Below the pieces are notes generated by a model. That model was not told the origin of the DNA and did no database searches. It worked only from the letters and a program-made list of their open reading frames with translations. This document shows positions 9,982 through 21,606 of a DNA stretch of 32,000 nt, one piece after another. The position numbers and the translations under genes are program-made. Source of the DNA: Cupriavidus necator (GTDB taxonomy: Bacteria; Pseudomonadota; Gammaproteobacteria; Burkholderiales; Burkholderiaceae); contig NZ_CP066018.1 of assembly GCF_016127575.1 (NCBI RefSeq), positions 3,930,001 to 3,962,000 of the forward strand, read 5' to 3'. Position 1 is the stretch's first letter, and each line of letters opens with the position of its first letter.

Positions 9982-10058
9982 TGGCGGAGTGGACGGGACT
10001 CGAACCCGCGACCCCCGGCGTGACAGGCCGGTATTCTAACCGACTGAACTACCACTCC
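9982..10058 (-). tRNA. tRNA-Asp (anticodon GTC)
   Basis: The reverse complement reads GGAGTGGTAGTTCAGTCGGTTAGAATACCGGCCTGTCACGCCGGGGGTCGCGGGTTCGAGTCCCGTCCACTCCGCCA. It has cloverleaf arms, anticodon loop CTGTCAC and an encoded CCA, and is near-identical in form to E. coli tRNA-Asp. Confidence 0.95.
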
Positions 10059-10110
10059 TGTGTCGGCGCTTGCTGCTGGCGATGCACATGCCCTTGCGAT
10101 GGCGAGTAGC

Positions 10111-10135
10111 GGGTGCTGAGGACGCCTTGCAAGGG
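10111..10135 (-). repeat. Decayed partial copy of tRNA-Val (anticodon-arm/variable region plus 3' acceptor strand, T-arm missing); candidate att-type direct repeat
   Basis: GGGTGCTGAGG (10111-10121) is identical to 21534-21544 of tRNA-Val. ACGCCTTGCAAGGG (10122-10135) matches 21563-21576 at 13 of 14 positions. Order and orientation are the same, with the 18 nt of the T-arm absent between the two blocks. Confidence 0.6.
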
Positions 10136-10312
10136 AATCGAATTTCCTTACAAATCATAAGCCTACAACGCCTACCAACCTTCCCTTGCCGACCGTGCCC
10201 TGCTGCAAGAGGCCGAACTATAGCTCGTGTTCATCATCTGCGCAATACCCGGATGACTCAACCTTGTACCCTCGCCGCTCTGCCCGATGAGGTGGCGTTC
10301 AGCGCAAACTCC

Positions 10313-11329
10313 TTACTCCTCAATCCGTATCCTTGCCGCCTTGACAGCCGCGCCCCATCGTTGATTCTCAGCCTGGACAAATTCACCGAACTTCTTGGGG
10401 TCAATCGTGATTGGCGTATAGCCCATGTCGGCGAGGCGTGCACGGAACTCTGGTTGGGACGTGGCGCGAGTCACCTGCGCCTGGATGGCATCAACCACCA
10501 CTTGCGGCGTATTTGGCGGAGCGAGCACGCCAAACCAGGTGTCAGCGTCGATGGCATAGCCACTTTCGGTGAGCGTAGGAATCTCCTTGATTGACGGGAA
10601 GCGCTCAGGAGATCCCAATGCATAAAGCCGCAGTTTGGTCTTGTTGGCGACCGCCAAAGGTGTGGGAATGAATGCATAGTCAACTTGACCACCCATGACA
10701 GCTGTCATGACCGGTGCAGCGCCGCCGAACGGCACTTCGAGCATGTTGTTGATGTGCGCCTTGGTCTTGAGCAATTCCATGCCCATTTGCGCCATGCTCC
10801 CCGGCCCCCAATGACCATAGGAAAGTGAGCTGGCTTTTGCCTTCGCGACGATGTCCTGGACAGTCCTGGTCTCGGCATCTGGACGACTTGCCAGAACGAA
10901 GCCCATCTTGGCTACGGGAGCAACGGGCCGGAAGCCATTGGGCTGAAACTGGACGACCTTCTTGTGAATATACGGTGCGACTGAAATAAAGTCGGCGGCC
11001 GCAAACAGCAACGTGTACCCATCCGGTGGCGATGCATAAGCGACATTGGCACCAATCACGCCGTTGGCACCCGGCCGGTTCTCCACCACGATGGGTTGGC
11101 CAAGTCCGTTACCAATGCCCGCCACGACAAGGCGGGCGAGTACATCCGTTCCCCCGCCTGGCGCATACGGAACGACCAGCCGAATCGGTTTAGTGGGCGT
11201 CCACCCCGGTTGAGCGTTTGCCGGATTGGCCGCCCACATTGCGGCGAACAGCGTCGCAGCGGCGCCCACAAGGCGAACGCCTCCCTTGGCGCTTCCAGCA
11301 AAGCGCCCCACTGATACCATGAAGTTCAT
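10313..11329 (-). CDS. Bug-family (TctC-like) tripartite tricarboxylate transporter substrate-binding protein
   Basis: Signal peptide, then the typical Bug N-terminus KPIRLVVPYAPGGGTDVLARL...ENRPGANG. AGGAGA SD 5 nt before ATG 11329. Confidence 0.85.
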   Translation of the reverse strand: MNFMVSVGRFAGSAKGGVRLVGAAATLFAAMWAANPANAQPGWTPTKPIRLVVPYAPGGGTDVLARLVVAGIGNGLGQPIVVENRPGANGVIGANVAYASPPDGYTLLFAAADFISVAPYIHKKVVQFQPNGFRPVAPVAKMGFVLASRPDAETRTVQDIVAKAKASSLSYGHWGPGSMAQMGMELLKTKAHINNMLEVPFGGAAPVMTAVMGGQVDYAFIPTPLAVANKTKLRLYALGSPERFPSIKEIPTLTESGYAIDADTWFGVLAPPNTPQVVVDAIQAQVTRATSQPEFRARLADMGYTPITIDPKKFGEFVQAENQRWGAAVKAARIRIEE

Positions 11330-11372
11330 GTTGTCTCCTGACTGTTCTAATGTGCCATCGTGTGGTTCGCAG

Positions 11373-12842
11373 TCATCTGTGGACTGCCTGCTGCGCTGCA
11401 TGCTCGCCGGCAAGCTTTCCGAATACCGCGCCTCGCATTACCGACGTAGCCCCCGTGTAGACCTGGTAGTAAAGGCCCGATGCTTCGCCCGCGGCATACA
11501 GTCCGGGGATAGCCTTGCCGTCGGCGTCCACAACCTGAGCGTCCCGATTGATCTTGATGCCTCCGAACGTGAAACAAATGCCAGGCATGATCGGATAGGC
11601 ATAGTAGGGTGCGCTGGCAATGGGGCGTGCCCAATTGGACTTCCTGGGGAGAATGCCTGAGGTCGCAAGATGGTCCTCTTCGAGCGGCATGAAAGTCCCG
11701 GTAGGGCAAGCCGCGTTGAACCCTCGCACAGTCCCTTCAAGGCCCTCAGCGGAAATGCCGCAACGCTGCGCCAACTCTGCCAGCGTTCCTGCCTGGAGGG
11801 GGGGCTGATCTGTGCGAATGCCTTTTCTCCAGTTCGGCACATCGTTGATCCGCTCGTCGAAGATGACGTAAGCGATGCCGTCTGGCTGGTCCTTGATCGC
11901 ACGGGAGATATGATCGTAATGCACGTCGACCGGTCCCGGCGCCTCATCCGTAAAGCGTAGACCGAGCTTGTTCACCAGGATCCCATACGGAAAATTCATC
12001 ACAAGCGCTTCGACCTGTGCGGATCGGGGATCCAGCGGCTCGGCGTGAAACGAGCTGAAATCTCCGGCTGGTGCCGCACCCAGGTTCAGCGCCATGCGGA
12101 TTCCTTCGCCCTTGTTGTAGTAGCCGCCGCGTGCGACAGGACGGATATAGCGCGCCGCGGGCCCCATGTACTGCGTCAGCATTTCCGGATTGCCTTCAAA
12201 TCCACCCGACGCAATCACAACCGAGCGGCCGAGGAGTTCGAATGCATTCCCATCGGCGCCAACCAGACCCAGTCGAAGCTGGCCATTGGCGTCGCGCCGG
12301 GACAGCGAGTTTGCTGTCGTCTCGTAGTAGAACTTGACGCCAAGATCGCCAGCACGCGCATGCAATGCCTCGATCATGGCCAGGCCTCCGCCAACCGGCA
12401 TTAGCCGAGGTGCCGCCGCCGTGACGAAGTAAGTGGGCAGCGCGTCAAAGCGAATGCCAAAGGTCTGGAGCCACTGCACCGTCGGGCCAGCTTCGCACGA
12501 AAGCGTCGACAGCAGTTCGGGGTCCGGCATGCCATGTGCCTTCACGTACGCGGGCCACTCTGCATACGGTGCGGCCATGCTGCGAACAACGTTGGGATCG
12601 AGATTGTCGCCCGCATTGGCGCTCAGCAAGTCATCGAAATCGTCGCTGACCTCGGTATCGCTCTTCATGCGGAAGTACGCCTCGGTCCATCGCGTGTTGC
12701 CGCCATACTCTGCTCGCGTGGCGCGCTCAAGCACGGCCACGCGAGCACCCTTCCCCGCGGCAGCCACGGCCGCCGACAAGCCGGAGATGCCGCAACCGAT
12801 AACGACGACATCGTAGTAGGCGGCACTGTGTGCAGCGCTCAT
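11373..12842 (-). CDS. FAD-dependent oxidoreductase, fumarate reductase/succinate dehydrogenase flavoprotein-like (TcuA / KstD-type)
   Basis: Dinucleotide fold YDVVVIGCGISGLSAAVAAA. The C-terminal region NWARPIASAPYYAYPIMPGICFTFGGIKIN...LYAAGE resembles TcuA-type flavoproteins (recalled, not searched). GAGGAGA SD before ATG 12842. Confidence 0.8.
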   Translation of the reverse strand: MSAAHSAAYYDVVVIGCGISGLSAAVAAAGKGARVAVLERATRAEYGGNTRWTEAYFRMKSDTEVSDDFDDLLSANAGDNLDPNVVRSMAAPYAEWPAYVKAHGMPDPELLSTLSCEAGPTVQWLQTFGIRFDALPTYFVTAAAPRLMPVGGGLAMIEALHARAGDLGVKFYYETTANSLSRRDANGQLRLGLVGADGNAFELLGRSVVIASGGFEGNPEMLTQYMGPAARYIRPVARGGYYNKGEGIRMALNLGAAPAGDFSSFHAEPLDPRSAQVEALVMNFPYGILVNKLGLRFTDEAPGPVDVHYDHISRAIKDQPDGIAYVIFDERINDVPNWRKGIRTDQPPLQAGTLAELAQRCGISAEGLEGTVRGFNAACPTGTFMPLEEDHLATSGILPRKSNWARPIASAPYYAYPIMPGICFTFGGIKINRDAQVVDADGKAIPGLYAAGEASGLYYQVYTGATSVMRGAVFGKLAGEHAAQQAVHR

Positions 12843-12865
12843 CGTGCGTCTCCTCTTTTTTGCTT

Positions 12866-14347
12866 TTAGTACTTCCGGACAAACGGATCCGGCATCTCGA
12901 GATCGGTGGATACCCATACGCTCTTGGTCTCCATGAACTCCTTGACCGCCTCTGTGCCACCCTCACGCCCTAGACCGCTATCCTTGTAGCCGCCAAATGG
13001 CGTGGTGAAACTCGTGGAGCGGTAGTTGTTGATCCAGACCGTTCCTGCTTGCAAGCGCTCAGACATGTACATGGCTCGGTGCAGACTCTTGGTCCATACG
13101 CCGGCCGCGAGGCCGAACCGGATATCGTTCGCGATGCGCAGCGCATCGTCTTCATCCTTGAACTTAAGCACAGACAGTACAGGGCCAAAGACCTCTTCCT
13201 GCGCAATGCGCATGTCGTTGGTCACATTGGTAAAAATTGTCGGCTCGACGAACTGACCCGCGCCGTAGTCCGCGCCGCTGCGCGTCTTGCCACCGAAAGC
13301 ACAGGTCGCCCCGTCTTCCCGAGCAATGCGGATGTAGTCGACCACCTTCTCAAACTGCGGACGGGTCGCCACAGGCCCCATCTGCACATCCGAACGCGCG
13401 GGATCACCGAGCTTCGCCTTGCTCGTGATTGCAACCAGCCGATCGACGAACTCGTCGTGAATGCTCTCCTGCAGCAGCAATCGCGAGCCGGCCATGCAAG
13501 TCTGGCCACCTGCCGAGAAGATCCCGGTGATGACCCCATTTGCTGCGTTGGTGAGGTCGGCATCGTCGAAGACGATATTCGGTGATTTTCCGCCAAGTTC
13601 CAGGGTGACCTTCTTGAAGTGTGCCGCCGCGGCAAGATTGACGCGTCGGCCTCCTTCATCCCCCCCGGTAAAGGCGATCATGGGCACTAGCGGATGCTCG
13701 ACCAGCGGCTCGCCGACATCCCTGCCGAATCCCGTCACCACATTGAAGACACCCGGCGGAAAGCCCGCCTTGACGAACAGCCTGGCCAGTTCCAGCAGGG
13801 ATGCCGAGGTGTGCTCGGACGGCTTGGCTACGATCGCATTGCCCGCACAAAGGGCAGGCGCAACCTTCCAGGCTGTCAGCAGCAGGGAAGAATTCCACGG
13901 CGTGATCGTGCCAACGACGCCCACCGGCTCCAGTCGGGTGTAGTTAAACACCTTCGGCTTGTCCATCGGCACGACCGCGCCCTGAATCTTGTCCGCCATG
14001 CCCGCATAGTAATAGAAGTACTTGGCGACATAGCCGACCTGGCCTCGTACTTCGCTGCGCAATTTGCCATTGTCACGCGCTTCCACTTCCGTCAGCAGAT
14101 CGATGTTCTCTTCGATCAGTCCGGCCAGCTTGTACAGCAGCATCCCGCGGTTAGTCGCCGACATTTTGGACCATGGCCCTTTCATCGCTGCGGCGGCAGC
14201 CTGAGCCGCGCGATCGACGTCTTCGCGTGTTCCGCGCGGAATCTCGGCCCATGCTTCGCCGGTGAACGGATCGAGCGATTCAAACCATTGACCTCGGCTC
14301 GGATCAACCCATTCGTTATTGATGAAGAGTTGGTATCGCGGCTGCAT
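12866..14347 (-). CDS. NAD(P)+-dependent aldehyde dehydrogenase
   Basis: ALDH hallmarks: LFINNEWV N-terminus, catalytic Glu motif ELGGKSP, catalytic Cys motif GQTCMAGSR. AGGAGA SD before ATG 14347. Confidence 0.9.
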   Translation of the reverse strand: MQPRYQLFINNEWVDPSRGQWFESLDPFTGEAWAEIPRGTREDVDRAAQAAAAAMKGPWSKMSATNRGMLLYKLAGLIEENIDLLTEVEARDNGKLRSEVRGQVGYVAKYFYYYAGMADKIQGAVVPMDKPKVFNYTRLEPVGVVGTITPWNSSLLLTAWKVAPALCAGNAIVAKPSEHTSASLLELARLFVKAGFPPGVFNVVTGFGRDVGEPLVEHPLVPMIAFTGGDEGGRRVNLAAAAHFKKVTLELGGKSPNIVFDDADLTNAANGVITGIFSAGGQTCMAGSRLLLQESIHDEFVDRLVAITSKAKLGDPARSDVQMGPVATRPQFEKVVDYIRIAREDGATCAFGGKTRSGADYGAGQFVEPTIFTNVTNDMRIAQEEVFGPVLSVLKFKDEDDALRIANDIRFGLAAGVWTKSLHRAMYMSERLQAGTVWINNYRSTSFTTPFGGYKDSGLGREGGTEAVKEFMETKSVWVSTDLEMPDPFVRKY

Positions 14348-14460
14348 CTATGTCTCCTGAGGTGAGTAAGGCCAGCGAAAAGCGCTGTATTGTGGGGATA
14401 TTCTGGCGGCCACAACGCGCGACGGCAAACGAGAAGAACTGTGGACTTGATGAGGTTTTC

Positions 14461-15681
14461 TCACGATCTGGAGGCCGCAAGATTCAGCCGGAATGCAGCC
14501 GCCAGCGCGTCTGCCACACGCGCAAGGTTTTGGCTGTTGAGCGCAGCGATGCAGATGCGACCCGAGTCAGCCCCGTAGATGGCGCACTCTTCGCGCAAGT
14601 ACTCCATTTGGGCTTGTTTGAGACCGGAATAGCTGAACATGCCCTTCTGGCGTTCGATGAAGGCGAAATCCTTATCGACACCTCGGGCCTTGAGCGCTTC
14701 ACTTAACTCTGTGCGCATGCGGCAGATCCGCAGGCGAATCGCTTCGAGCTCTGCCTGCCAATGCTCTCGCAGCAATGGCGTGGTCAGGACCTGCGTGACC
14801 AGCCGCCCGCCATGGGATGGCGGATTCGAGTAATTCGTACGGATCAGGAGTTTCAACTGCGAGCGCACGCGCACAGCCACATCTTCTGTCGGACAAACCA
14901 CAGAGAGGGCCCCGACTCGCTCGCCGTACAGCGAGAAGTTCTTTGAGAATGACGTGGCCACCATGCATGGCAATCCTGCCTCCACAAATGCGCGAGCCAC
15001 ACGCGCATCGGCGTCGAGGCCATCCCCGAAGCCCTGATATGCCATGTCAATCAGTGGTATCAGACGTCGCTGCGCGATGATATCGATGATCGCCGGCCAG
15101 GCATCCTGGGGCAGGTCGTACCCGGTCGGGTTGTGACAGCAGGCATGCAAGACCACAACCGTCCCGGCACTTGCATGCGACAGGTCGGTCAGCATGCCGC
15201 TCAGGTCTGGCTGCTCCGCATCGCGCGGAAGGTAGCGATACGTATGAACCTGGTAACCCGCCCTTGACAGTACTCCGCGGTGGTTTTCCCAAGTCGGCTC
15301 GCTAATCAGGGCACGCGCAGGCGCCCCCCATCGTCTCGCGAATTCTGCGCCAAGGCGCAGCGCACTGGTTCCGCCCACCGTTTGCACCGTGGCAACGCGC
15401 CTGGCCAGCGCCGAGTCCGCGTCGATACCGAAGACGATGGGAAGAACTGCATGCTGGAAGGCCACAGTGCCGTCGATAGGCTGATAACCGCGCGGCAGCC
15501 TCGCCGCTACCAGGTCAGCCTCAGCGTTTGCAATGCATTCGAGCAGGGGAATCCGGCCACCATCGTCGTGGTAGACACCTACCGCAAGGTTCACCTTCTC
15601 AGGACGCGGATCGTGTGCAAATTGCTCGTTCAGGCCAAGGATTGGATCCCTGGGAGCCATTGGAAGGGACGTCAGAAACAT
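14461..15681 (-). CDS. Class I aminotransferase, aspartate/aromatic amino acid type (AspC/TyrB family)
   Basis: N-terminus MF...APRDPILGL...NLAVGVY and the PLP-lysine motif SFSKNFSLYGERVG parallel E. coli AspC (SYSKNFGLYNERVG). Confidence 0.88.
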   Translation of the reverse strand: MFLTSLPMAPRDPILGLNEQFAHDPRPEKVNLAVGVYHDDGGRIPLLECIANAEADLVAARLPRGYQPIDGTVAFQHAVLPIVFGIDADSALARRVATVQTVGGTSALRLGAEFARRWGAPARALISEPTWENHRGVLSRAGYQVHTYRYLPRDAEQPDLSGMLTDLSHASAGTVVVLHACCHNPTGYDLPQDAWPAIIDIIAQRRLIPLIDMAYQGFGDGLDADARVARAFVEAGLPCMVATSFSKNFSLYGERVGALSVVCPTEDVAVRVRSQLKLLIRTNYSNPPSHGGRLVTQVLTTPLLREHWQAELEAIRLRICRMRTELSEALKARGVDKDFAFIERQKGMFSYSGLKQAQMEYLREECAIYGADSGRICIAALNSQNLARVADALAAAFRLNLAASRS

Positions 15682-15788
15682 CTTGAACTCGCTCTACTTG
15701 GTGGGAGCGAGTCATTCTCCGTGTCGCCTGGAACGGCAGTAAAACGAGTTTTTCTCCAGTACTGATGCGCCTGGCGCAAGTAGCCCCC

Positions 15789-15809
15789 AAAAAGTTACGC
15801 GAACGCAAC
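15789..15809 (-). terminator. Weak candidate intrinsic terminator after the LysR gene
   Basis: Imperfect hairpin GTTGCG-TTCG-CGTAAC on the minus strand, with one mismatch, followed by TTTTT. Confidence 0.3.
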
Positions 15810-15818
15810 TTATCGACC

Positions 15819-16724
15819 CTACTTTAGCCGGGATTTCCACTCCGCTTCGATCCCGACCACCCAGTCTCGAAATAGCTGCACGAGCGCCGAGTCCTTCTTC
15901 CGTTCCGGATACACGAGGCAATAGCGCTTCTCGTGCTTAAGAGACAGATCGAACGGCACGACAAGATCGTTGCGCTCGATCTCATCTTGTACATACATGC
16001 GGGGAACCAGGCCAGCGCCTAACCCTGCTCGCGCAGCTTCGATGACCATGCCGTACAACTCGAAATGCATGCTCGAAACCGGTGTAAAGTCCGCCACCGC
16101 GGCCATCGCAAACCAGTGCCGCCATGCTTCTGGCCGGGTGGACTTGTGCAAGAGCGGCAGTTCCGCCAAGTCTGCCGGCGCACCCAAGAGCTGGGTGTCA
16201 AAGTAGCGGGGGCTCACGATCGGGACCAGTTCTTCGTCAAACAGGTCGACCCTTACCACATTGGTCCAGGCCGGATGCTCGAAATTGAGCGCCGCATCGA
16301 AGTTGGTTTCGTCAAAGCTAAAGGGCAGTGGGCGCTCTGAGAGATTGAGAATAATGTCCGGATGACGCTCACGGAAATCGCGCAGGCGCGGCAGCAGCCA
16401 CCTGTTTGCAAACGTGGGGATCACCGCCAGTTCAAGCACGCCGCCAACGCCCTTGTGCGCCATCAGAGCGGAGGTGTGTGCCTCTATCTCCGCAAGGTTA
16501 CGCGCAATATTCTTCAGATACAGGCGGCCGGCATCATTGAGAACGACCTGCTTGCGGACCCGCGTGAAGAGCTTGACGCCCAGATATGTTTCCAGTGTCG
16601 CGATCTGCCTGCTCACGGCGCTCTCGGTCAGGCACACCTCGCTTGCCGCACGGGCAAAACTGCCTTGCCTTGCTGCCGCCTCGAAGACCGCCAGGGCGAT
16701 CGTGCTTGGAATCTTACGTCTCAT
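15819..16724 (-). CDS. LysR-family transcriptional regulator (GcvA-like subgroup)
   Basis: N-terminal wHTH (FEAAARQGSFARAASEVCLTESAVSRQIATLE) plus a LysR substrate-binding domain. Confidence 0.9.
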   Translation of the reverse strand: MRRKIPSTIALAVFEAAARQGSFARAASEVCLTESAVSRQIATLETYLGVKLFTRVRKQVVLNDAGRLYLKNIARNLAEIEAHTSALMAHKGVGGVLELAVIPTFANRWLLPRLRDFRERHPDIILNLSERPLPFSFDETNFDAALNFEHPAWTNVVRVDLFDEELVPIVSPRYFDTQLLGAPADLAELPLLHKSTRPEAWRHWFAMAAVADFTPVSSMHFELYGMVIEAARAGLGAGLVPRMYVQDEIERNDLVVPFDLSLKHEKRYCLVYPERKKDSALVQLFRDWVVGIEAEWKSRLK

Positions 16725-16861
16725 GGCTCACATCCACGTCTTGCTTACTCAGATTGCATTAGTTGTTGATTATTACTCAGTTGCCCGTATTACGCGGTTT
16801 CGCCAATACTCCGGGGCAACCCGCATGGTCCTGCAGACGGCGGATACGATCCGGAAATGCT

Positions 16862-17158
16862 ATGACCCAGAACTTGATGGCACGAATTCGCGAGGCGATT
16901 CTCGATGCCGCACCCTTAGAGCCTCTTGTCAGCCCTCTCGACCGGGATCAGGCCATTACCTTGCTGCAGGATGCCATCCTGGCTGACGACATCGAACGTC
17001 AGATCATCTGCCTCGCTGCCGCGGTGGAGCTACACGCGGTTGTTTCCCAGGATCTGTGGCGACATTGCGAGCGCAAGGCCGGAGACAGTGGCGATGCCGC
17101 ATTGAGTCGACTGTTCCGCAGCGCGCGTGGCCGATCCTTCGCCAGGATGATGCGCTGA
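16862..17158 (+). CDS. Hypothetical protein (98 aa), no family recognised; may be a 5' gene remnant
   Basis: ORF divergent from the LysR gene, with codon usage like the surrounding low-GC3 block and a weak SD. The C-terminal about 20 aa are Arg-rich (SRLFRSARGRSFARMMR), so the end may not be native. Confidence 0.3.
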   Translation: MTQNLMARIREAILDAAPLEPLVSPLDRDQAITLLQDAILADDIERQIICLAAAVELHAVVSQDLWRHCERKAGDSGDAALSRLFRSARGRSFARMMR

Positions 17159-17303
17159 TACGCATGCCTGACACCGGCGCTTGCTGTTCCCACTGTTGCA
17201 TATGGCTATTTTACGATCTGCAACAGCTCGACCCGCCCCGCCTCGAGCCGCGCCTGCATCACGGCGTGGGCCTGCCACTCGGCTGCCAATTCCGCCTGCA
17301 CGC

Positions 17304-17843
17304 TCAGGCGCACATGCGCGCCTGGAGCGCCATCAGCTCATGCTTGACGACCTTGCCCGCGGCATTGGTCGGCAGGGCCGCCATGAAGGCCACGGAACGT
17401 GGCACCTTATAGTTTGCCAGGCGGGCTTTGCACCATTCCAGCAATACCTCCCCGCTCATGCTCTCGCCTTCGCGCAACACCACGAAGGTGCGGCCAACCT
17501 CGCCCAGGCGCGTATCGGGTACGCCGACCACCGCGACCTGCGCCACCGCCGGATGCGTGCCAATCAGGTGCTCGATCTCCGCGGGATAGCAGTTGAAGCC
17601 GCCCACGATGAACATGTCCTTGAGCCGGCCGGTGATACACAGGTTTCCGGCGGCGTCGACGCTGCCGATGTCGCCTGTATGCAGCCACCCCGCGTCGTCG
17701 ATGGCCTCGCGTGTGGCGGCCTCGCCGTCGAAGTACCCACGCATGACGGTGTAGCCGCGGATCCACACTTCGCCCGGGTCACCGCCACTCAGCGAGCTGA
17801 CGGTACGATGAGCAGACGCATCGCCCTGGCCGGAGGGTGCCAT
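17304..17843 (-). pseudogene. 5'-truncated acyl-CoA synthetase / AMP-dependent ligase (C-terminal about 165 aa only)
   Basis: The clear ANL-superfamily C-terminal half is present (GEVWIRGYTVMRGY, WLHTGDIG, GRLKDMFIVGGFNCYPAEIE, HPAVAQVAVVGVPD, YKVPR). Similarity stops near 17800. The space for the missing about 350 N-terminal aa is occupied by an intact SDR gene on the other strand. Confidence 0.75.
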
Positions 17844-17993
17844 GGCGAAAAAATCGTCTCGGGCGCGGTTGTTTTGGTCCATTTGGACTATGTCGCACCC
17901 CGCGTGACCGGAAACAATGCGCCTATCAGCCGCGAATATCGGCCGACATGTCGCCGCTGCGCGACCAACCATGACATCCGGGAGAGACATCCA

Positions 17994-18791
17994 GTGACGA
18001 CCCAACACCCTGTCACCGACGATTTTCGCGTGACCCTCAACACGCCGGCCAGCGCGGTCGTGGTTACCGGCGGCGCGTCCGGCATTGGCGAGGCTTGTGC
18101 AGCGGCCCTGTCCGCCATCGGCCGGCCGGTCGCCATCTGGGATATCCAGGAGGACAAGGCGCGTGCCGTCGCCGCGGCGCTCGCCGAACGTTATGACGTG
18201 CCCACCTTCGGGCTCGGCATCGACCTGCGCGCCCCCGCCGGCCTGGAACACGCGCTGGTCCGCACCCGCGCCGCCCTGCCGGCGCTGGGCGGCATGGTGC
18301 ATGCTGCCGGCGTGGTGGACCAGAGCGGGATCGACGGCCTTACACAGGCGCGCTGGGACGCGGTGCTTGATGTCAACCTGCGCGCCATGGCCCTGCTGGT
18401 GCAAGCCATGCTGCCTGACCTGCGCGCGCAACCTGGCGCGGCAGTCGTCGGCATCGCGTCGATCAATGCCACGCTGGGCAACGCCCTGATTCCGGCTTAC
18501 TCCGCCTCCAAGGGCGGCCTGCTCTCGCTGGTGCGCTCGCTCGCGGACAGCCTGGGCCGCGACGGCATCCGCATCAACGCCGTCTCTCCCGGACAGATCC
18601 ACACACCGATGCTTCAACCTGCCATCGATGCCCTGCCCGAAGGCACCTTCGAGCGACGCATCCAGCTGGGCCGCCTCGGCACCCCCGCGGAGATCGGGCG
18701 AGTGGTCCGTTTCCTTCTGTCGGACGAGGCCAGCTACGTCACCGGCACCGAGCTCATCGTCGACGGCGGCAACATTCCTTCGCAGCGCTGA
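17994..18791 (+). CDS. SDR-family oxidoreductase
   Basis: TGGASGIG cofactor motif, NAxG-like HAAG, and catalytic YSASK. GTG start with GGAGAG 7 nt upstream. The upstream part of the 536-aa track ORF is an antisense shadow of the ligase remnant. Confidence 0.85.
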   Translation: MTTQHPVTDDFRVTLNTPASAVVVTGGASGIGEACAAALSAIGRPVAIWDIQEDKARAVAAALAERYDVPTFGLGIDLRAPAGLEHALVRTRAALPALGGMVHAAGVVDQSGIDGLTQARWDAVLDVNLRAMALLVQAMLPDLRAQPGAAVVGIASINATLGNALIPAYSASKGGLLSLVRSLADSLGRDGIRINAVSPGQIHTPMLQPAIDALPEGTFERRIQLGRLGTPAEIGRVVRFLLSDEASYVTGTELIVDGGNIPSQR

Positions 18792-18914
18792 ATCGGAGCG
18801 CCCTGTCCTGTGGCTGCTGGGCCGTTCTCATACTGGGTCGCCATCCTCCGGCCGGACGTCCAGCCCTGGTTCTTCCGTCAGCCTTTCGACGCTCGAGGCT
18901 CACCGCGGGACGCC

Positions 18915-20039
18915 CTATGCAGTCCTGGCCCGTTCTGCAAGCAGCTTCAGCAGCCGTGCCTCGTCGGCACGCAGGCGGCTGACGATGGCGACGCGCGCGC
19001 AGTCCTGCAATCCGTCGTCGATGAAGGCCTCGATCACCGCCGGATGGACATAGCACTTGCGGCACACCGCCACGGTGTTGCGCAGGCGCTGGGCCACTGA
19101 CTTGATGACCTCGGCCACGCACTTCCTGCGCGCTGCTTCGCCGTCCGCGCCGGCCGCGCGCAGCAGCGCGAGCGCATGCACGCTGCCCGCCCAGGTGCGG
19201 AAGTCCTTGGCAGTGAAGTCGCCGCCGGTCGCCTGTTGCAGGTAGGCGTTGACGTCGGCGGATCCGACCTCGCGGATCTCGCCGTCGCTGTCGCGATACT
19301 TGAACAGGCACTGGCCTGGCAGGTCGGCACAATTGCGCACGATGCGGGCCAGGCGCGGATCGTTGACCGATACGTCGTGGGTGATGCCGCTCTTGCCAGT
19401 GAACTGGAAACGCAGCCGGCTGCCGCGCACGGTGACATGGCGGCGGCGCAGCGTGGTGAGGCCGTAGGTGCGGTTCTGCCGCGCATATTGCGGACTACCC
19501 ACGCGCACAAGCGTGGCGTCGAGCAGTTGCACCACCGCCGCGACCACTTTTTCGCGCGGCATGCCGTTGCGGCGCAGGTCGCGCGCGACGCGCGCCCGCA
19601 AGCGGGGCAGTACGCTGCCGAAGGCCGGCAACCGCGCGTATTTGTCCGAATCGCGCTGCGCGCTCCACTCAGGGTGGTAGACATACTGCTTGCGGCCGCG
19701 CGCATCGCGCCCGGTCGCCTGCAGGTGGCCCGCAGGGTTCGCACAGATCCACACTTCCTCGTAGGCAGGAGGAATCGCCAGCGCAGCAATGCGTGCCAGC
19801 GTGGCGGCATCGTCCACGCGCTTGCCGTTGGCGTCGATGTAGGCAAAGCCGCCGCCCTGACGGCGGCGCCCGATGCCCGGCATACTGTCATCGACATAAC
19901 GCAACCCGGCCTCGCGCAATACCGTACGCAACGCTTTGTCGGCACCATTAGTCGGGAGGGCACTATCCAAGGCTGGGTCTCTTTCCGGGGCTGCCAGCGC
20001 GCCGTCCGGGTCTTCCGGCGCTTTATGCGTGCGGGCCAC
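18915..20039 (-). CDS. Type IB DNA topoisomerase (poxvirus/eukaryote-like bacterial TopIB)
   Basis: Family-typical blocks are present: YVDDSMPGIGRRR..GFAY.D, ALAIPPAYEEVWIC, GRDARGRKQYVYH, F.FTGKSG (catalytic Lys region), DFRTWAGS (Arg region) and RNTVAVCRKCYVHP (catalytic Tyr). The start is uncertain. GTG 20039 overlaps the upstream gene by 17 nt. TTG 19970 is an alternative. The ATGs at 20189-20270 would overlap the upstream gene by more than 160 nt. Confidence 0.85.
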   Translation of the reverse strand: MARTHKAPEDPDGALAAPERDPALDSALPTNGADKALRTVLREAGLRYVDDSMPGIGRRRQGGGFAYIDANGKRVDDAATLARIAALAIPPAYEEVWICANPAGHLQATGRDARGRKQYVYHPEWSAQRDSDKYARLPAFGSVLPRLRARVARDLRRNGMPREKVVAAVVQLLDATLVRVGSPQYARQNRTYGLTTLRRRHVTVRGSRLRFQFTGKSGITHDVSVNDPRLARIVRNCADLPGQCLFKYRDSDGEIREVGSADVNAYLQQATGGDFTAKDFRTWAGSVHALALLRAAGADGEAARRKCVAEVIKSVAQRLRNTVAVCRKCYVHPAVIEAFIDDGLQDCARVAIVSRLRADEARLLKLLAERARTA

Positions 20040-20589
20040 AGTGGCCTTGCCCGCGCTGCGCCTGTTCGTGGTAATGGCAAATGCGAGCCAGCGCCCAGTC
20101 GGCAGCGGCTTCGCGTACGGCGTTACGCGTCCCCGGAAAGCGCCGCGTTTCCGTGAACGCGGCAATACCCCCGGTGCTCCGCAGCACATCACGCGCCGCA
20201 TGGCCGTGGCGGCGGAACACCCAGGCAAAGCACTGCGTGCCCGCCGGGATATCGCCATCGCCGCCATCATCGGCGACGCCGGTGTTGGCGATCGCGAGGT
20301 CGGCGCCGGTCATCTCCATGGCGCCCAGCGCCATCGCCAGCGAGACCGCCTCGCTGGTCAGTCCGTGTTGCCTGATGGTCTCAGGCGGCACGTGCAGCAA
20401 CTGTTCCTTGGCCGAGGGCGAATACGCCACGATGGCGCAGTGCAAGACATCTCCGCAACCCGGCACCTCGGCGATGCGCGAGGCGATCAGCCCCGCGGTA
20501 CAGGACTCCGCCGTGACCACATGCAAATGGTGGCGCAGCAAATAGCGCGCAATGCTGCCGTTGTCGCTGCCGTTTTCCCCAAGCGTCAT
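20023..20589 (-). CDS. pncC: CinA C-terminal domain / PncC-like nicotinamide-nucleotide amidohydrolase
   Basis: TAESCTAG motif, YS.SAKEQLL, HG.TSEAV, and NTG..DDGG...P.GT..FAW align with E. coli PncC/YgaD as recalled. ATG 20589 overlaps the upstream stop (ATGA). Confidence 0.8.
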   Translation of the reverse strand: MTLGENGSDNGSIARYLLRHHLHVVTAESCTAGLIASRIAEVPGCGDVLHCAIVAYSPSAKEQLLHVPPETIRQHGLTSEAVSLAMALGAMEMTGADLAIANTGVADDGGDGDIPAGTQCFAWVFRRHGHAARDVLRSTGGIAAFTETRRFPGTRNAVREAAADWALARICHYHEQAQRGQGHCGPHA

Positions 20590-21185
20590 CGCTGCGCCTC
20601 CGACGCCTGCACAGACACTCCGTTGCTGCGCGAGACAGCATGCGTGGCCGGTGCTGCGGGTACGCGGCCGTCGCCGCCGCGGCCCTTCACGAACGTCACC
20701 TTGCCGTCGCGCTCCAGCACCACCCGGGTAAGGTCGTCGAAGCTGTCGGTCTGAAGTGTCGCACGCAGGTTGGCCTTGAGGTCCTCCTCGGTCAGCATTG
20801 CGTGGCTCACGCGCTCCCGGTCCAGTTCCCCCTCGCGCAGCAGGTCCAGCGCGTGGCCGCCAGTGGCGCGGTCGAATGCCGGAGAACGGCTCGACAGCCA
20901 GCCCACCACCCGGTGCAGAAGCACCAATGCCAGCCCGGCGGAAAACGCCACCGCGAACGAAGTGGCCCCGACCACGGCGCGCGACAACACCGCGCCCAGC
21001 AGCAACATGATGCACAGGTCGAACGATGTCTTTTGCGCGAAGGCCCGCCTGCCGGCCAACCGCAGCATCGCCCAGGTGCCGGCGAAGATGATGGCGGCAC
21101 GCACGGCGCCTTGCCACCACGCCAGGTCGTCACCTTCGCCCACGAGCTTGCGCATCGCATCGACGATCACTTCCACGCTGTCCAT
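20586..21185 (-). CDS. DUF421 (YetF-like) membrane protein
   Basis: N-terminal TM helices, R.FAQKTSFD..IMLLLGAVLS, and a YetF-type C-terminal domain (LLREGELDRERVSHAMLTEEDLKANLR...VVLERDGKVTFVK). Confidence 0.75.
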   Translation of the reverse strand: MDSVEVIVDAMRKLVGEGDDLAWWQGAVRAAIIFAGTWAMLRLAGRRAFAQKTSFDLCIMLLLGAVLSRAVVGATSFAVAFSAGLALVLLHRVVGWLSSRSPAFDRATGGHALDLLREGELDRERVSHAMLTEEDLKANLRATLQTDSFDDLTRVVLERDGKVTFVKGRGGDGRVPAAPATHAVSRSNGVSVQASEAQR

Positions 21186-21479
21186 GTCGGCGTCCGCAGT
21201 CGATTTCCTGACTGGTTCCGCAAGTTCCGCGCCAGGCTCACGACACTGGGCCGTGCTGCCGTGCACGTCCCATATGCGCTCATTCGCGCGGGAATGCGGG
21301 GAAATCGTACGTGCAGTGCCGGGCCAGGCCTGAAAAAACTGCGCAGAGCGCGCGCAACATCGGGAGCGAATAGCGCTTATCTGTGGGACGCCGGAAAACA
21401 CCGGCCGGGAGCGCCATGCCGAGCAACGGCGGAACAGCAATTTAGCGCGCGGCTCGGCCGGAGGGAGATGAAAATACCA

Positions 21480-21511
21480 ACAAAAAAGGACTTAGATCGC
21501 TCTAAGTCCTT
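21480..21511 (-). terminator. Rho-independent terminator immediately after tRNA-Val
   Basis: Perfect 11-bp AT-rich stem AAGGACTTAGA (21486-21496) / TCTAAGTCCTT (21501-21511) with a 4-nt loop. On the minus strand it is followed by TTTTTTGTT. Confidence 0.75.
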
Positions 21512-21529
21512 GATTTTGTTAGTCAAGCG

Positions 21530-21606
21530 TGGTGGGTGCTGAGGGGTTCGAACCCCCGACCTACGCCTTGTAAGGGCGCCGCTCTACCAACTGAGCTAAG
21601 CACCCG
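21530..21606 (-). tRNA. tRNA-Val (anticodon TAC)
   Basis: The reverse complement reads GGGTGCTTAGCTCAGTTGGTAGAGCGGCGCCCTTACAAGGCGTAGGTCGGGGGTTCGAACCCCTCAGCACCCACCA. It forms a cloverleaf with anticodon loop CTTACAA and an encoded CCA. Confidence 0.95.

Follow-up and report, generated by a model that had tools for sequence, protein, structure and literature searches.

A decayed tRNA-Val fragment beside tRNA-Asp in Cupriavidus necator H16 as the probable attR scar of an old, integrase-less island

Introduction

Upstream of the tRNA-Asp gene of Cupriavidus necator H16 lies a stretch of 25 nt that resembles part of the tRNA-Val gene found 11.4 kb away. Why should a piece of one tRNA gene sit beside another? 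An initial annotation of the window (the whole 32-kb stretch of DNA analyzed here, to which all coordinates refer) proposed that these 25 nt are an att-type repeat, left when a tyrosine recombinase integrated an island into tRNA-Val, and that they mark the far border of that island. Our comparison of the locus with its relatives and with viral contigs leads us to conclude, with high confidence, that 10111-10135 is what remains, after decay, of the attR of an old tRNA-Val island, which spans 10136-21529 and no longer has an integrase. No earlier description of this island was found in the searched literature.

Results

A fragment of tRNA-Val lies next to tRNA-Asp

The features of the locus are listed in Table 1. 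On the minus strand, the order is clpX, lon, tRNA-Val, 11.4 kb of other sequence, tRNA-Asp and ppiD. AM260479.1 and CP039287.1 encode PpiD and Lon proteins identical to those of the window, and we take both records to be chromosome 1 of C. necator H16.

Table 1. Features of the tRNA-Val/tRNA-Asp interval and its borders in the window
Feature	Coordinates	Strand	Basis and remarks
tRNA-Asp(GTC)	9982-10058	-	ARAGORN; Rfam tRNA 70.4 bits; formerly second gene of a Val-Asp pair
Original Val-Asp spacer, 48 nt	10059-10106	-	Homology to empty-site spacers, 47-51 nt long
Decayed discriminator and CCA	10107-10110	-	GCTA; GCCA in L010; ACCA in intact genes
Probable attR scar, block 2: tRNA-Val positions 62-72 (T-stem end and 3' acceptor strand)	10111-10121	-	11/11
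Probable attR scar, block 1: tRNA-Val positions 30-43	10122-10135	-	13/14; A to G in anticodon
Inserted block, 11,394 bp	10136-21529	.	Pfam and gene calls; absent from about 45 Cupriavidus species
Right-arm motif TAGGCTTATGATTT	10152-10165	-	Inverted partner of AATCAAGGACTTA in left arm
Promoter-like TTGCGC-N17-TATAGT, then TCGGCCTC	10217-10245	-	158 nt upstream of tRNA-Asp
TctC-family receptor gene	10313-11329		Pfam/gene calls
FAD oxidoreductase gene	11373-12842		Pfam/gene calls
Aldehyde dehydrogenase gene	12866-14347		Pfam/gene calls
Aminotransferase gene	14461-15681		Pfam/gene calls
LysR gene	15819-16724		Pfam/gene calls
AMP-binding_C pseudogene remnant	17304-17972	-	Pfam/gene calls
SDR gene	17808-18791	+	Pfam/gene calls
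Topoisomerase IB gene	18915-20039		Pfam/gene calls
CinA-domain gene	20023-20589		Pfam/gene calls
YetF/DUF421-like gene	20586-21185		Pfam/gene calls
Left arm of probable former element, 11-bp hairpin and T-run	21483-21517	-	Terminator scan; stem 21486-21511; terminates tRNA-Val
Intact tRNA-Val(TAC), attL side	21530-21605	-	ARAGORN; repeated core (positions 30-76) is 21530-21576

The site is made of two adjoining blocks that are collinear with the intact tRNA-Val(TAC), in the same orientation, and match it at 24 of 25 positions. The block GGGTGCTGAGG (10111-10121) is identical to 21534-21544 over all 11 positions, and ACGCCTTGCAAGGG (10122-10135) agrees with 21563-21576 at 13 of 14. Read on the minus strand, tRNA-Val positions 30-43, from the end of the 5' anticodon stem through the loop and the 3' stem, are joined directly to positions 62-72. 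The 18 nt skipped between the blocks (positions 44-61) are the variable loop, the 5' T-stem, the T-loop and one base of the 3' T-stem; they are in place in the nearest relative, L010. The distance from the scar to the 5' end of tRNA-Asp (10058) is exactly 52 nt. Pairwise comparison thus agrees with the initial annotation on the identical 11-mer, the 14-mer with one mismatch in the anticodon arm, the shared orientation with the intact gene 11.4 kb away, the 52-nt distance and the 18 missing nucleotides. The annotation had equated the 11-mer with the 3' strand of the acceptor. This holds as far as the last acceptor-stem base; the discriminator and CCA fall outside the match and read GCTA instead of ACCA.

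Two blocks this short could resemble tRNA-Val by chance. The 11-mer alone is borderline in 64 kb of sequence. GGGTGCTGAGG is the sole 11-mer of tRNA-Val that recurs elsewhere in the window. When whole 32-kb windows were simulated with a Markov model, 2 of 300 reached the observed gapped score of the local alignment with tRNA-Val, a score that also counts a third, probably fortuitous alignment block (D-loop-like, 10170-10180). At the specific place and strand, the same score was reached in 0 of 20,000 simulated 150-nt stretches upstream of tRNA-Asp. In addition, both blocks can be placed, column for column, on the tRNA-Val of relatives with an empty site and on a 47-nt fragment in L010, with homologous spacer next to them. 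We therefore give a chance resemblance virtually no credence; the initial annotation had called it unlikely because of the collinear second block.

A complete tRNA-Val occupies this position in relatives that lack the insertion

Relatives were collected by scanning one genome per species with PpiD, which gave 80 loci. About 45 other Cupriavidus species have tRNA-Val(TAC) immediately before tRNA-Asp. The gene order at these empty sites is clpX, lon, tRNA-Val, spacer, tRNA-Asp and ppiD. Spacer lengths range over 22-150 nt, with 47-51 nt among the nearest species. A complete tRNA-Val therefore stands at exactly the position of the scar when the insertion is absent. The initial annotation had named insertion-free relatives with the same 25 nt and no tRNA-Val as the finding that would speak against it; the comparative loci gave the opposite outcome.

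The borders of the insertion can be read from the same relatives. With the empty sites L014 and L018 as BLASTN queries against the window, one arm ends at 21526/21529 and the alignment resumes at 10121. The clpX/lon side aligns continuously through tRNA-Val down to 21526-21529. The arms share 16-19 nt of the empty-site relative, as they should if the target was duplicated. In a multiple alignment, both scar blocks fall on the matching tRNA-Val columns of the relatives and are followed by homologous spacer, 10059-10106 corresponding to the empty-site spacers (CTCnCCATCGCAAG...GCAGCAAGCGCCGACACA).

Several loci depart from these arrangements on the tRNA-Asp side. In some Cupriavidus species, 0.8-1.9 kb lies between tRNA-Asp and ppiD (L056, 8086-10001; L030, 9164-10001), and C. 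pampae (L062) lacks a tRNA-Asp call after its tRNA-Val. Given these loci, the neighboring tRNA may also be a site of insertion or rearrangement. Among the Rhodocyclales/Sulfuritalea MAGs (L065-L071), which are betaproteobacteria at a greater distance, five (L065, L066, L068, L069 and L071) have no tRNA-Asp call near ppiD, and therefore the Val-Asp pair is not universal at the locus; four of the five have tRNA-Val about 55 nt before ppiD, and L071 has it about 3 kb upstream. Several short-read Logan assemblies with an identical PpiD (L003, L004, L005 and L006) show gltX, tRNA-Ala, tRNA-Glu and tRNA-Asp joined directly to ppiD. They diverge from the window exactly at the 5' end of tRNA-Asp (9982-10058), and the island-side contigs break inside tRNA-Asp. 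The likeliest cause of this join is that the assembly path ran through another, identical copy of tRNA-Asp, with no real rearrangement behind it.

The fragment is longer in the nearest relative and decayed or lost in others

The adjacent tRNA-Val is absent in six other species (L010, L011, L012, L013, L015 and L023), giving seven occupied taxa with H16. They form one clade in a neighbor-joining tree built from 5 kb of flank, which is a rough tree. The nearest relative, Cupriavidus sp. UYPR2.512 (L010), has a flank 96.7% identical to that of H16. Its island end is H16-like and is followed by an unbroken 47-nt fragment, CCCTTACAAGGCATAGGTCGGGGGTTCGAACCCCTCAGCACCCGCCA, that matches tRNA-Val positions 30-76 at 45 of 47 positions. 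In C. alkaliphilus (L013), a 47-nt version is present with about half of its positions changed, and in L011, L012, L015 and L023 the fragment and most of the spacer are lost. Judged from these sequences, the H16 fragment derives from the L010-type 47-mer by loss of 18 nt and two more substitutions. The change A73G is common to H16 and L010, so we infer that the fragment had ceased to function before the two lineages split.

The L010 fragment is far better kept (45/47) than that of L013 (roughly half). A single old event, which is how we would explain the occupied clade, thus needs uneven decay or gene conversion, and more than one insertion of related elements may have taken place at the locus. 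The base in the T-loop, A or G, was considered as a marker of the element-derived copy of the repeat and was rejected, being polymorphic across species.

The fragment could have a function of its own. Its 25 nt contain the palindrome CCTTGCAAGG and sit in the probable 5' leader of tRNA-Asp, downstream of a promoter-like motif, so that they might be a conserved leader, processing or regulatory signal for tRNA-Asp. Such a signal should be kept, and the occupied taxa show 47 nt in L010, a deletion in H16, a mutated version in L013 and no fragment in L011, L012, L015 and L023, while the promoter-like motif and tRNA-Asp are retained in all of them. A fragment so often lost or mutated is therefore not under selection, and we consider a functional element very unlikely.

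A different origin for the fragment would be a tandem duplication of the whole tRNA-Val gene, with genes brought in between the copies by transposition or illegitimate recombination and the Asp-proximal copy rotting afterwards. A trace of the 5' half might be seen in GGTTGGTAGGC (10170-10180, minus strand), a short D-loop-like match to tRNA-Val that lies 34 nt upstream of the scar, inside the right arm of the island; L010 also has it. This weak match is probably due to chance, or the original attP may have held a longer tRNA-like stretch around it. What counts against a whole-gene copy is the sharp junction in L010, where identity falls from 45/47 to 10/29 exactly at tRNA position 29|30, the 29 nt being those where the 5' half would lie. 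No relative was seen with a fragment extending 5' into the D-arm and the 5' acceptor strand. The Rfam tRNA model, run permissively with Infernal (E up to 10) in place of the pseudogene-type search suggested by the initial annotation, found no match at the scar site in the H16 window or in L010. This is as expected for a 3' part only. Viral contigs, described below, also bear on the whole-gene duplication.

Viral contigs share the attachment segment and the arm next to tRNA-Val

IMG/VR was scanned with the 47-mer and with its last 25 nt, which gave 11 contigs; two of these (L114 and L115) are not tRNA-Val-type sites. In contigs L107-L110, a hairpin comes after a complete tRNA-Val. About 170 nt further on, L108-L110 have an entire tyrosine integrase ORF of 374 aa, and in L107 the same tRNA-Val and hairpin are followed by the first 219 integrase codons, where the stored stretch ends. 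The 374-aa ORF matches Phage_integrase (PF00589, Pfam) in L108 and L109 and the phrog_1 integrase (PHROGs) in L109, and the L110 integrase is 97% identical to the L109 copy. The gene upstream of tRNA-Val in L109 we read as that of an HU-like protein instead of lon, which means that at least this contig comes from another host.

The H16 arm directly after tRNA-Val, AAAATCAAGGACTTAGAGCGATCTAAGTCCTTTTT, is homologous to this integrase side. It is 88-91% identical over 34-41 nt to L107, L109 and L110, and 80% identical over 46 nt to L108. The hairpin is not present in the aligned Val-Asp spacers of empty sites, and its stem shows compensatory changes from G-C to A-T, for which L125 supplies a G-T intermediate. 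L125 is a further Cupriavidus chromosome (flank 96.4% identical) that does not differ from H16 across tRNA-Val and the hairpin. About 102 nt of the arm remain there before unrelated cargo begins, and H16 keeps only the first 47 nt or so.

The remaining contigs (L111, L112, L113, L116 and L117) carry only the 3' part of tRNA-Val, with unrelated sequence before it. The start of each, at or next to CCCTTACAAGG, agrees to within one base with the tRNA position at which the 47-nt fragment begins. L111 has an integrase after the 3' part, which identifies it as an attP-type site. The boundary of the H16 and L010 fragment coincides with that of these attP-type sites. Together with the homology of the arm after the intact tRNA-Val to the integrase-side arm of viral elements, this leaves a decayed whole-gene duplicate only a slight chance of being right.

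Motifs like TAAGnnnTTGATT occur upstream of the core in L111, L112, L113 and L117, at the same distance as the right-arm motif of H16, and AATCAAnnACTTA occurs downstream of the core in L107-L111, L116 and L117. At attP-type sites, this inverted pair, about 100 nt apart, brackets the 47-nt core. Both motifs are recognizable at the ends of the H16 insert (10152-10165 and 21498-21517), the upstream one only modestly. Viral right arms are known only from attP-type contigs, to which the likeness of the H16 right arm is modest. The inverted motifs could possibly be integrase-binding sites. No second copy of the core (attR) was found in the stored stretches of the viral contigs. A BLAST search of a phage collection with 221 nt covering tRNA-Val and the downstream arm gave generic tRNA matches only, and the tRNA-Val-proximal 2.7 kb matched only topoisomerase IB (TopIB) homologues in plasmids when phage and plasmid collections were searched.

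The initial annotation's reading of the site as an att-type repeat from integration into a tRNA gene is therefore supported by the empty sites, the 47-nt fragment of L010 and the viral attachment sites. Its attribution to a tyrosine recombinase is upheld insofar as viral elements share the attachment segment and the arm; no integrase is left at the locus, and catalysis by a tyrosine integrase is what we infer from those elements.

The island lacks an integrase and its cargo varies between strains

No integrase or recombinase was found in the 11.4 kb by Pfam searches of large and small ORFs or by tblastn with three integrases from the viral contigs. Relics of an integrase were also absent when the small ORFs of two gene-poor stretches were searched with Pfam at E up to 1 and tblastn was run with the three integrases. 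The same negative result was obtained for the 10 kb nearest tRNA-Asp in L010, L011 and L013, and for the tRNA-Val-proximal parts of other C. necator variants and of L125. PHROGs searches with three island genes gave only families of unknown function for the CinA-domain and TopIB genes and no match for the YetF-like gene. The remaining island genes are metabolic or regulatory by Pfam, with no phage genes in the present cargo.

The G+C content is 0.58-0.61 over 10.0-17.0 kb, 0.68 over 17-21 kb and 0.66-0.72 in both flanks. C. necator strains with an identical Lon fall into two variants. They follow the window at 99.4% identity as far as 17783 and diverge beyond it, where one has the H16 gene set and the other a Rieske/KshA-SDR-SnoaL-OYE set. 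The AMP-binding_C remnant sits at this junction, and the 7-kb module of lower G+C content (0.58-0.61) at 10300-17800, from LysR to TctC, is specific to H16-type strains. What L010 has in common with the H16 island is limited to the YetF-like gene, the TopIB gene and the final 140 nt or so; in L011, L013, L015/L023 and L125, the cargo is made up of different metabolic or regulatory genes. At least five different gene sets thus occupy the interval between tRNA-Val and tRNA-Asp across strains and species. The borders of the island are mapped, in agreement with the initial annotation's placing of the far border at 10111-10135, and the present cargo between them is mostly later replacement and not the original element.

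TopIB was considered as a possible recombinase of the island and was rejected as very unlikely. Its homologues are not near tRNA genes, and the island ends match elements with classical integrases. The homologues are found on the C. basilensis plasmid pRK1-2 (L100; 82% aa identity) and on a 2.8-Mb C. campinensis replicon (73%), which was taken from a plasmid collection, and no tRNA lies within 15 kb of either. In the window, TopIB and YetF/DUF421 are close together (18915-21185) with the CinA-domain gene between them. On pRK1-2, they are about 6 kb apart, and the surroundings of TopIB are mostly uncharacterized genes, a catalase and a YetF-domain gene. This suggests that TopIB and YetF form a linked module.

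A promoter-like motif is kept upstream of tRNA-Asp

A second feature is common to the occupied loci. The sequence gTATTGCGC-N17/18-TATAGT-TCGGCCTC occurs in 7 of 7 occupied taxa, upstream of tRNA-Asp by 52-57 or 158-177 nt. The hexamers, their 17-18 nt spacing and the G+C-rich TCGGCCTC are kept across the seven taxa; the sequence of the spacer and the surroundings are not. Within the fetched loci and the window, the motif is limited to occupied loci and is always upstream of tRNA-Asp. Both are retained even where the att fragment is deleted. A consensus promoter scan did not call the motif, its -35 hexamer scoring only 3/6. No match to the motif was found in the viral contigs, and it may have come with the element or have arisen at the locus.

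Upstream of tRNA-Val is another promoter-like sequence, TTGGCA-N18-TACACT. At empty sites, the two tRNA genes are separated by a gap of 47-51 nt without a terminator, so tRNA-Val and tRNA-Asp are presumably co-transcribed from it. In H16, the terminator scan places a strong terminator after tRNA-Val. The motif at the Asp-side end of the insert probably now drives the orphaned tRNA-Asp. It may have become the promoter of this gene when the element separated the two tRNAs and put a terminator behind tRNA-Val, and since been held by selection across the H16/taiwanensis clade, a proposal to which we give even odds. No published map of H16 transcription start sites was found in the searched literature.

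Discussion

Our results point to the following history. In the ancestral locus, clpX and lon were followed by tRNA-Val(TAC), about 48 nt of spacer, tRNA-Asp(GTC) and ppiD. The element that entered is proposed to have been circular, phage-like and integrative, with an attP in which tRNA-Val positions 30-76 (anticodon stem through CCA) were duplicated, and its tyrosine integrase would have recombined this attP with the chromosomal gene. Recombination would have rebuilt a working tRNA-Val beside lon, followed by the element's own terminator hairpin, and moved the 47-nt 3' portion that the host gene originally had, together with its spacer and tRNA-Asp, to the opposite end. Later, the element presumably lost its integrase and all else by deletion, and stress-type and metabolic cargo, differing by strain and species, took their place. 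The displaced fragment, no longer constrained, decayed, in H16 by loss of 18 nt and three point changes that left 25 nt. Of this history, the comparisons show the empty site, the duplication with its exact borders, the series of decay and the homology between the left end of the island and elements that carry an integrase; the action of a tyrosine integrase, a single ancient event and the use of the promoter-like motif by tRNA-Asp are proposals built on them.

The mechanism of origin is an ordinary, textbook process, and current understanding is unchanged by it. What the locus provides is more specific. The borders of an 11.4-kb accessory block (10136-21529) are fixed to the base in the model organism C. 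necator H16, and the att duplication explains the hypervariability of the tRNA-Val/tRNA-Asp interval in the H16 clade. The relatives supply a decay series for an att scar, from 47 nt intact through the 18-nt deletion and heavy mutation to loss. Displaced tRNA fragments can thus map integrase-less islands that integrase-dependent finders miss. Strain engineering gains a dispensable region and, for integrases specific to tRNA-Val, a candidate natural attB.

Two kinds of known object do not fit the locus. A prophage of the L108-L110 type would have an integrase, phage genes and both arms; H16 has no integrase or phage genes and keeps only the start of the left arm. A tRNA pseudogene would be a decayed complete copy, which does not fit the 10/29 match of the 5' half in L010 or the lack of a covariance-model match. 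H16 shares with L107-L111 the 47-nt core and its left boundary, and the hairpin arm lies directly after the tRNA. Those contigs are 13-46 kb long with an integrase about 170 nt from the tRNA, whereas H16 keeps only the start of the arm.

Among the closest known classes is that of Islander (Hudson, Lau & Williams 2015; PMC4383910), whose signature is a regenerated tDNA with a displaced fragment and which recognizes an anticodon-centered class of attP sites. The H16 locus has an intact target tRNA at one end and a 3' fragment in the same orientation at the other, the fragment runs from the anticodon stem to the CCA, and relatives keep the target uninterrupted. The boundary also lies at one of the recognized crossover sub-sites (anticodon loop, T loop and T/acceptor junction), being 29|30 at the anticodon stem-loop, as seen in L010 and in the attP-type viral sites. 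Unlike islands under the Islander definition, that of H16 has no tyrosine integrase gene and its attR is damaged, and for these reasons the Islander filters would reject it. It also differs from Islander elements in being immobile, with its content replaced by ordinary metabolic and stress genes. In its present state, the interval is like the hot spots of gene turnover next to tRNA genes, as these are outlined by Oliveira et al. (2017; PMC5635113): a fixed interval with varying cargo. In contrast to the hot spots as outlined there, the origin of the one in H16 can be traced to a specific att duplication.
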